This document shows positions 21,165 through 21,431 of a stretch of 64,000 bases of DNA, one piece after another. Source of the DNA: Escherichia coli. Lineage in GTDB: Bacteria > Pseudomonadota > Gammaproteobacteria > Enterobacterales > Enterobacteriaceae. Made by a program: the position numbers and the translations under genes. The stretch lies in NCBI RefSeq assembly GCF_009931435.1, contig NZ_CP043414.1; one strand, given 5' to 3'. Each line of letters opens with the position of its first letter. Position 1 is the first letter of the stretch. The notes beneath the pieces were generated by a model. It saw nothing but the letters and a program-made list of their open reading frames with translations. It was not told the origin of the DNA and did no database searches.

Positions 21165-21431
21165 ATGGACATTAATAACAAAGCCCGCATTCACTGGGCA
21201 TGCCGCCGTGGTATGCGCGAACTCGATATTTCAATCATGCCGTTTTTCGAACATGAGTACGACAGCTTAAGTGATGACGAAAAACGCATCTTTATTCGTC
21301 TGCTGGAATGTGACGATCCCGATCTGTTCAACTGGCTGATGAATCATGGTAAACCGGCCGATGCAGAACTGGAAATGATGGTCCGACTCATCCAGACACG
21401 GAACCGGGAACGTGGTCCTGTGGCAATCTGA
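21165..21431 (+). CDS. sdhE: FAD assembly factor SdhE (antitoxin CptB, YgfY)
   Basis: Track ORF 88 aa, recognised SdhE sequence with RGxxE motif. Confidence 0.9.

Follow-up and report, generated by a model that had tools for sequence, protein, structure and literature searches.

Does the overlap between sdhE and ygfX (cptB and cptA) in Escherichia coli, in which the last 20 nucleotides (nt) of one gene are also the first of the next, bind two products into obligate co-expression as parts of a toxin-antitoxin module? We analyzed this junction in a 64,000-nt stretch of E. coli DNA (assembly GCF_009931435.1, contig NZ_CP043414.1), referred to here in its entirety as the window. The original prediction, made from the letters of the window, regarded the genes as a translationally coupled, toxin-antitoxin-like pair. 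The explanation that we favor, with a probability of roughly 0.72, is that the junction is native and frozen by dual coding, that YgfX is linked to sdhE at a low level, and that a toxin-antitoxin role is doubtful.

A native overlap within a known operon

The out-of-frame overlap of 20 nt proved exact, as read from the sequence together with its open reading frame (ORF) listing, and RefSeq agrees with it: the PGAP annotation of E. coli MFDS1022581 has the identical overlap. The shared stretch, GTGGTCCTGTGGCAATCTGA, reads (R)GPVAI* in the frame of sdhE and M-V-L-W-Q-S-D in the frame of ygfX, with only the first two bases of the codon for D7 lying inside it. The identities of the two genes were likewise upheld by matches in Pfam, NCBIfam and PDB. 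SdhE matched the Pfam family Sdh5 (PF03937; 5e-26, 90.8 bits against a cut-off of 27) and the NCBIfam equivalog NF008130 (198.4 bits against a cut-off of 120). It is 100% identical to PDB 1X6I, the solved E. coli YgfY/SdhE, and matches the chains named FAD assembly factor SdhE in PDB 6C12 and 6B58. Its RGxxE motif is R15-G16-M17-R18-E19, in which R15, G16 and E19 were invariant in the SdhE alignment. YgfX matched Pfam Cpta_toxin (PF07254, DUF1434; 4e-49, 166.5 bits against a gathering score of 27.3) over profile positions 1-132 of 133, and only a few residues set it apart from most E. coli YgfX proteins (97-99% identity). A search of 5426 complete E. coli genomes recovered the sdhE-ygfX region from 5425 and gave no match in the remaining one; one of the 5426 matching places lay on a plasmid-typed record. 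The overlap is the native junction of the well-known two-gene sdhE-ygfX (cptB-cptA) operon. The gene pair, its co-transcription and the overlap are already known from standard annotation and the literature, and by themselves they are nothing new.

Both proteins constrain the overlap

A scan with the SdhE alignment, in which each species was represented by a single genome, gave 80 loci belonging to about 30 genera, all of them Enterobacteriaceae; with the window, the set comprised 81 species. Beyond the Enterobacteriaceae, we sampled contigs encoding relatives of YgfX. All 87 loci checked for the pair carried both genes, with sdhE followed by ygfX in the 80 from the scan, so that the co-conservation of the pair is strong. 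The GTG of ygfX and the TGA of sdhE occupied the same positions in 81/81 Enterobacteriaceae species, and the overlap 20-mer occurred in only four variants among them (in 66, 13, 1 and 1 species). Over 79 species, the entropy at the wobble position of sdhE was 0.12 bits in codons 83-88 as compared with 1.10 bits in codons 2-77 (Mann-Whitney p=4e-5), and at that of ygfX it was 0.0 bits in codons 1-7 as compared with 1.23 bits in codons 8-60 (Mann-Whitney p=2e-4). Within the overlap, the wobble position of sdhE is the second position of ygfX, and the wobble position of ygfX is the first position of sdhE. The overlap is near-invariant because each of its bases falls, in one frame or the other, at a first or second codon position, so that both proteins constrain it. 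The conservation of the junction is more than chance.

Outside the Enterobacteriaceae, the homologue of YgfX codon 1 stood 20 nt ahead of where the sdhE stop codon ends in Leminorella, Mixta, Pantoea, Plesiomonas and one further lineage. The called start of ygfX is 9 nt further upstream in Leminorella, giving a 29-nt overlap, and 6 nt upstream in Pantoea dispersa and P. ananatis, giving a 26-nt overlap; Pantoea sp. A4 shares the homologous geometry. One non-Enterobacteriaceae lineage with this geometry uses TAA as the sdhE stop. The original prediction had proposed conservation across genera as a check, and the overlap passed it both in the Enterobacteriaceae and in these genera. As judged from the sequences compared, the overlap has been nearly frozen since the ancestor of Enterobacterales.

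Two loci had an interrupted ygfX frame together with intact overlap DNA. In Kluyvera genomosp. 3 YDC799 (CP022114.1) the ORF ends past position 68 of the hidden Markov model, and in Leclercia adecarboxylata NCTC13032 (LR590464.1) there is a change of frame somewhere from codon 1 to codon 19. Both may be pseudogenes, or else assembly indels may be the cause.

The sdhE stop codon lies across codons 6 and 7 of ygfX (xxT GAx or xxT AAx), which permits only D/E or N/K as residue 7 of YgfX. This residue was D, E, N or K in 37 of 41 family representatives, the exceptions being Q, Q, H and L. As predicted beforehand, the exceptions lacked the overlap in 4/4 cases, and the eight D/E/N/K representatives that were checked all had it (Fisher p=0.002). 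At the sequence level, then, the overlap leaves a clear dual-coding imprint, with the stop codon dictating residue 7 of YgfX and the wobble positions frozen in both frames.

The GTG codon as the start of ygfX

The frame of ygfX opens past a TGA at 21376, and the first canonical start in it is the GTG at 21412, followed by a TTG at 21466 and an ATG at 21505. No other canonical in-frame start was present upstream of the GTG in 60 of the 81 Enterobacteriaceae species. Long gene overlaps are often mis-annotated, and it could be that ygfX truly starts downstream, at the TTG or the ATG, and that the two genes do not overlap; a GTG with a weak Shine-Dalgarno (SD) sequence, together with the lack of a ygfX start among the entries listed in a compendium of translation initiation sites would be in line with such an artefact. 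However, the amino acids of ygfX codons 8-18 were conserved while their wobble positions were free to vary (79 Enterobacteriaceae species), which argues that these codons are translated and that initiation therefore takes place upstream of codon 8. Moreover, the N-terminus of YgfX, M-x-x-W-(Q/R/K/H)-(C/S/A)-(D/E/N/K)-L-R-x-S, was conserved when 41 diverse representatives of the family were aligned, the core motif M-x-x-W-x-x-x-L-R-x-S being common to the whole family, and in relatives without the overlap ygfX begins at the homologous residue, behind a clear SD sequence (GAGGG, AGGAG or GGAGG). In an AlphaFold2 model of YgfX (mean predicted local distance difference test score, pLDDT, 94.8), residues 2-8 form a beta-strand with pLDDT >90; in the model this strand must pair with strands of the C-terminal domain, because the other strands lie only there. 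A start at ATG 21505 would also delete the first transmembrane (TM) segment. We consider a mis-annotated start very improbable, and take the GTG at 21412 to be a secure start as predicted from the comparative evidence and the model.

Lineages in which the overlap is lost

The overlap is not universal in the YgfX family. Two of the residue-7 exceptions have both genes and a gap between them. In one lineage the gap is 30 nt; in Proteus, sdhE and ygfX are 479 nt apart, separated by an AT-rich spacer with a terminator-like hairpin and a T-run just past sdhE. The spacer occupies positions 522-1000 in Proteus faecis (GCA_037196485.1), where ygfX begins with GTG and is preceded by an AGGAG of its own. 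Going by this arrangement, the pair appears to be uncoupled in Proteus, and ygfX has probably acquired separate transcription too. In Candidatus Symbiodolus clandestinus, which has a 1.5-Mb chromosome, ygfX lies 82 nt from ygfZ, and in a metagenome lineage (Logan SRR31860988) it lies 114 nt from an upstream gene of no identified family; neither interval has space for sdhE, and no Sdh5 match was found anywhere within these two loci. A 37-bp gap separates sdhE and ygfX in Shewanella (PMC8621075). Loss of the overlap coincided with gain of a strong SD sequence, namely one of the three motifs given above. Obligate co-expression, which the overlap had been taken to support, hence does not extend to the whole family, as shown by the Proteus spacer, the 30-nt and Shewanella gaps, and the occurrence of ygfX without an adjacent sdhE.

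Translation signals and coupling at the junction

In the 20 nt upstream of the ygfX GTG, the best duplex with the 3' end of 16S rRNA was only -4.3 kcal/mol. In 79/79 Enterobacteriaceae species the codon for Arg79 of SdhE is CGG, a rare one, five other conserved arginines being mostly encoded by CGT or CGC, and codons 78 and 80 also varied little, in what amounts to synonymous constraint upstream of the overlap. Conservation of the CGG codon does not extend to Plesiomonas or Pantoea. The CGGAA motif that begins with this codon may be a weak internal ribosome binding site (RBS) element for ygfX, and the invariance of CGG possibly reflects an SD-like or pausing element.

The single-sequence RNA fold at the junction was not significant (z-score -0.41), and the consensus fold of 27 species (-5.1 kcal/mol) had 0 compensatory pairs, with no conserved structure that would sequester the start or RBS of ygfX. 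No Rfam family matched at the junction; a lone sub-threshold RT-4 match, on the opposite strand in ygfZ (26.9 versus 73.5 bits), was taken as chance. A scan for promoters and terminators around the junction found nothing informative.

Translational coupling has its optimum at a stop-start spacing of -4 to +3 nt, and overlaps cut coupling more than gaps of equal size do (2025 review, PMC12548453); in one systematic study, that of Tian & Salis as presented in this review, there was no coupling at -25 nt. Because coupling drops so steeply with overlap (PMC12548453), a spacing of -20 nt is ill suited to termination-reinitiation. The junction thus shares with coupled pairs the lack of a strong RBS of the downstream gene, given the GTG and the -4.3 kcal/mol duplex, while its spacing of -20 nt lies outside the optimum; the conserved structure over the downstream start that characterizes coupling by RNA unfolding is also missing. 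The overlap by itself does not show tight or efficient coupling. Translational coupling, which had been read from the overlap alone, is not established, the geometry being unfavorable and a conserved inhibitory hairpin lacking.

The two proteins

SdhE is the FAD assembly factor, as seen from the solved complexes 6C12 and 6B58 and from a ygfY mutant that lost succinate dehydrogenase activity and growth on succinate (PMC5293155). The Sdh5 domain of SdhE ends at residue 79 according to Pfam, and the 6B58 chain covers residues 6-84; what the overlap encodes of SdhE is therefore a tail that the Sdh5 domain does not include. In the literature YgfX, a small protein of the inner membrane, is a binding partner of SdhE, and the two genes are co-transcribed (PMC5042078). 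In the model, YgfX consists of an N-terminal beta-strand, two TM helices, a cytoplasmic PH-like beta-sandwich and a C-terminal helix. Hydropathy and the model both bear out the two TM segments that had been assigned to YgfX, the topology itself being predicted only. The operon has been described for Enterobacteriaceae, and SdhE for alpha-, beta- and gamma-proteobacteria and eukaryotes (PMC5042078); relatives of YgfX found by a single-sequence search came only from Enterobacterales and metagenome lineages.

Several database proteins of 166-217 aa fuse Sdh5 and CptA domains (P0004-P0007, P0009, P0012, P0013, P0021), and could be taken as products of programmed ribosomal frameshifting within the overlap. 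However, nearly all of them are single-member clusters (one has two members), they come from raw assemblies and their junctions differ, as is typical of indel errors; furthermore, GTGGTCCTGTGGCAATCTGA has neither a slippery heptamer nor a prfB-like CUU-UGA context. We rejected the frameshift candidate because the clusters are essentially single-member and differ in their junctions. The fused proteins are most likely indel errors and not a real fusion or frameshift product, and an SdhE-YgfX protein made by frameshifting is scarcely credible.

The toxin-antitoxin question

That there is a debate between toxin-antitoxin and flavinylation roles, as the original prediction had it, is plain from the literature (PMC8621075, PMC3985639). 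The type IV label goes back to a single over-expression study, Masuda et al. 2012, which is cited for toxicity and rescue in E. coli; over-expressed YgfX is further cited as blocking the polymerization of FtsZ/MreB, like CbtA (both as cited in PMC8621075 and PMC3985639). The Fineran laboratory, working with Serratia, detected no toxin-antitoxin phenotype and saw a protein-protein interaction between SdhE and YgfX (PMC3985639). In Shewanella, a ygfY deletion was viable, a double deletion did not rescue growth, and neither did co-expression (PMC8621075). A cptBA-like pair of A. baumannii was reported as a toxin-antitoxin system (PMC8132199). Co-transcription was reported for Serratia (PMC5042078), Shewanella (PMC8621075) and A. 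baumannii (PMC8132199).

Of the features of a type IV system, the locus has the adjacent, co-directional module, as seen from adjacency and overlap with co-transcription taken from the literature. It does not have a toxin gene that is always accompanied by its antitoxin gene, nor a patchy, accessory distribution: ygfX lacks an adjacent sdhE in Ca. Symbiodolus and the metagenome lineage and is unlinked from it in Proteus, and the sdhE-ygfX locus is core and syntenic with ygfZ, fldB and xerD across Enterobacterales. PADLOC found no defence-system match. The toxin-antitoxin-like label thus fits poorly, the locus being core and syntenic and the phenotype not having been reproduced in Serratia or Shewanella, and a true toxin-antitoxin role is doubtful.

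Coordinates and neighborhood

The gene order around the junction is trhA (+), ygfZ (-), sdhE (+), ygfX (+), fldB (-), xerD (+) and dsbC (+). These genes were identified by combining the ORF listing with Pfam matches and with what RefSeq annotates on an E. coli chromosome of 99.3% identity. The stops of ygfX (21819) and fldB (21859) converge, and the 39 nt between them hold, at positions 21823-21852, an inverted repeat of 7 bp (TGACGGC...GCCGTCA) around a loop of 16 nt. This may be a bidirectional terminator; it has no T-run and was for that reason not flagged by the consensus scan.

Table 1. Features at the sdhE-ygfX junction, in positions of the window
Feature	Position	Strand	Remarks
sdhE (ygfY/cptB) coding sequence	21165..21431	+	ATG...TGA, 88 aa, FAD assembly factor; from ORF, Pfam, NCBIfam, PDB, RefSeq
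CGGAA, candidate weak SD-like element	21399..21403	+	Arg79 CGG and AA of Asn80, 9-13 nt 5' of GTG; Arg79 codon at 21399-21401
ygfX (cptA) coding sequence	21412..21819	+	GTG start, TAA stop, 135 aa
20-nt dual-coding overlap GTGGTCCTGTGGCAATCTGA	21412..21431	+	ygfX in frame +1 relative to sdhE
ygfX GTG start codon	21412..21414	+	G and T from sdhE Arg83 CGT; G from Gly84 GGT
sdhE TGA stop codon	21429..21431	+	spans ygfX codons 6 and 7 (tcT GAt)
YgfX predicted TM segment 1	21457..21510	+	about residues 16-33; Kyte-Doolittle 17-residue windows >2.0; model helix 12-31
YgfX predicted TM segment 2	21523..21573	+	about residues 38-54; hydropathy windows 1.6-1.8; model helix 36-62

Weighing the explanations

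In the explanation that we favor, ygfX would initiate at the GUG at 21412, which falls within the final six sense codons of sdhE, and in the +1 frame. The YgfX side would be the dominant constraint on the overlap, because residues 2-8 form a strand of the PH-like domain in the model and residues 80-88, the tail of SdhE, are not part of the Sdh5 domain by Pfam. The initiation signals of ygfX look poor, consisting of a GUG, a weak, GGA-type SD-like element and a start position buried in translated sequence. Synthesis of YgfX would most likely be tied to the sdhE transcript and to the ribosome traffic on it, and would run far below the level of SdhE; coupling would be weak or attenuated, and not an efficient 1:1 reinitiation. 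Lineages that lost the overlap gained a strong SD sequence for ygfX. Several observations weigh against parts of this explanation. No ygfX start is among the entries listed in the TRAINSPOTTER compendium of translation initiation sites, in which the sdhE start is present with Ribo-RET support; the missing entry fits low expression but is no positive proof of the GTG start. The GGA element offers only 3-4 bp of complementarity at a rather long spacing, and the invariance of CGG could have another cause. Finally, the coat-lysis pairs of phages fr/MS2 reinitiate at -38 to -50 nt, as presented in PMC12548453, so that a spacing of -20 nt does not exclude real coupling.

It seems conceivable, although rather unlikely, that the overlap has no regulatory role: it would go back to a single event in which either the stop of sdhE or the start of ygfX shifted, and would persist only because dual coding makes reversal difficult, with ygfX initiating de novo and independently. 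Since one of the two frames constrains each base, the conservation calls for no regulatory explanation, and the lack of conserved RNA structure, the several lineages that function without the overlap and the position of the SdhE tail outside the conserved domain all agree with this. On the other hand, the synonymous constraint upstream (codons 78 and 80, and the invariant CGG of Arg79) points to selection for an initiation signal within sdhE, the gain of a strong SD sequence upon loss of the overlap implies that the overlapped arrangement initiates differently, and ribosomes translating sdhE must cross the start of ygfX, which makes complete independence unlikely. A more specific proposal, which we advance tentatively and hold to be no likelier than the preceding one, is that YgfX is no toxin but a membrane-anchored, PH-like receptor for SdhE, and that the -20 overlap has evolved to control dosage, keeping YgfX far below SdhE. 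Inefficient backward reinitiation would then combine with a weak internal RBS that relies on the invariant rare CGG codon, the overlap would encode the first beta-strand of the receptor, and in Proteus and others, where the overlap is broken, ygfX would have been re-tuned with a strong SD sequence and its own transcription. Still less probable is that the overlap serves tight termination-reinitiation coupling and thereby makes co-expression obligate for SdhE/CptB as the antitoxin and YgfX/CptA as the membrane toxin of a type IV-like system. The same-strand overlap, the GTG start with its weak independent RBS, the extreme conservation of the junction, the Pfam family name 'Membrane-bound toxin component', the toxicity and rescue that Masuda et al. 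2012 is cited for in E. coli, and the A. baumannii cptBA-like pair (PMC8132199) would all fit. But dual coding alone accounts for the conservation, coupling drops sharply with overlap, to none at -25 nt in the work of Tian & Salis as presented in PMC12548453, and ygfX is unlinked from sdhE, or lacks an adjacent sdhE, in some lineages. The core, syntenic locus, the lack of a PADLOC match, the viable Shewanella deletion and the lack of rescue by the double deletion (PMC8621075) also speak against it, as do the missing phenotype in the hands of the Fineran laboratory and the SdhE-YgfX interaction, which conflicts with the definition of type IV (PMC3985639).

What the comparison adds is a GTG start that appears secure, an overlap that is ancestral to Enterobacterales and carries the imprint of dual coding, and the finding that the overlap is not universal in the family. 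Because of these points and of the core, syntenic locus, the toxin-antitoxin reading is weakened, and a housekeeping partner of SdhE, made at a low and linked level, is favored. Where pipelines label sdhE-ygfX as a toxin-antitoxin system in surveys of virulence or persistence, the label should be treated with caution.

Comparison with known systems

The closest system is the sdhE(ygfY/cptB)-ygfX(cptA) operon of E. coli K-12 (b2897 and its neighbor), to which the window is identical in genes, order, the 20-nt overlap and the flanking ygfZ, fldB and xerD; there is no material difference, YgfX varying by a few residues. With coupled pairs, such as those overlapping at -4 (ATGA) or -1 (TGATG/TAATG), for example trpE-trpD, and the fr/MS2 coat-lysis genes (-38/-50), the junction has in common a same-strand overlap, weak signals of the downstream gene and a terminating ribosome that ends near the downstream start. 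It differs from them in its spacing of -20 nt, a value beyond the -4 to +3 optimum and within the range of declining coupling, and from MS2 in that no inhibitory hairpin was found.

Type IV toxin-antitoxin systems (CbtA/CbeA, that is, YeeV/YeeU, and AbiE) are likewise small two-gene operons on the same strand. These systems, however, are prophage-borne or accessory, whereas sdhE-ygfX is core, syntenic and housekeeping. SdhE has a separate role as an enzymatic chaperone, unlike type IV antitoxins, and according to the literature it interacts with YgfX, whereas type IV is defined by a toxin and an antitoxin that do not interact (PMC3985639). In addition, the phenotype was not reproduced in Serratia (PMC3985639) or Shewanella (PMC8621075), and ygfX can occur without an adjacent sdhE. 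At the level of the proteins, YgfX was compared with the PH-like/Ran-binding-domain fold, represented by RanBP3 (2Y8F), the PH domain of ARAP3 (7YIS) and that of Bcr (5OC7). SDHAF2/Sdh5, the eukaryotic and alpha- and beta-proteobacterial homologues of SdhE, have the Sdh5 domain and the RGxxE motif in common with it.
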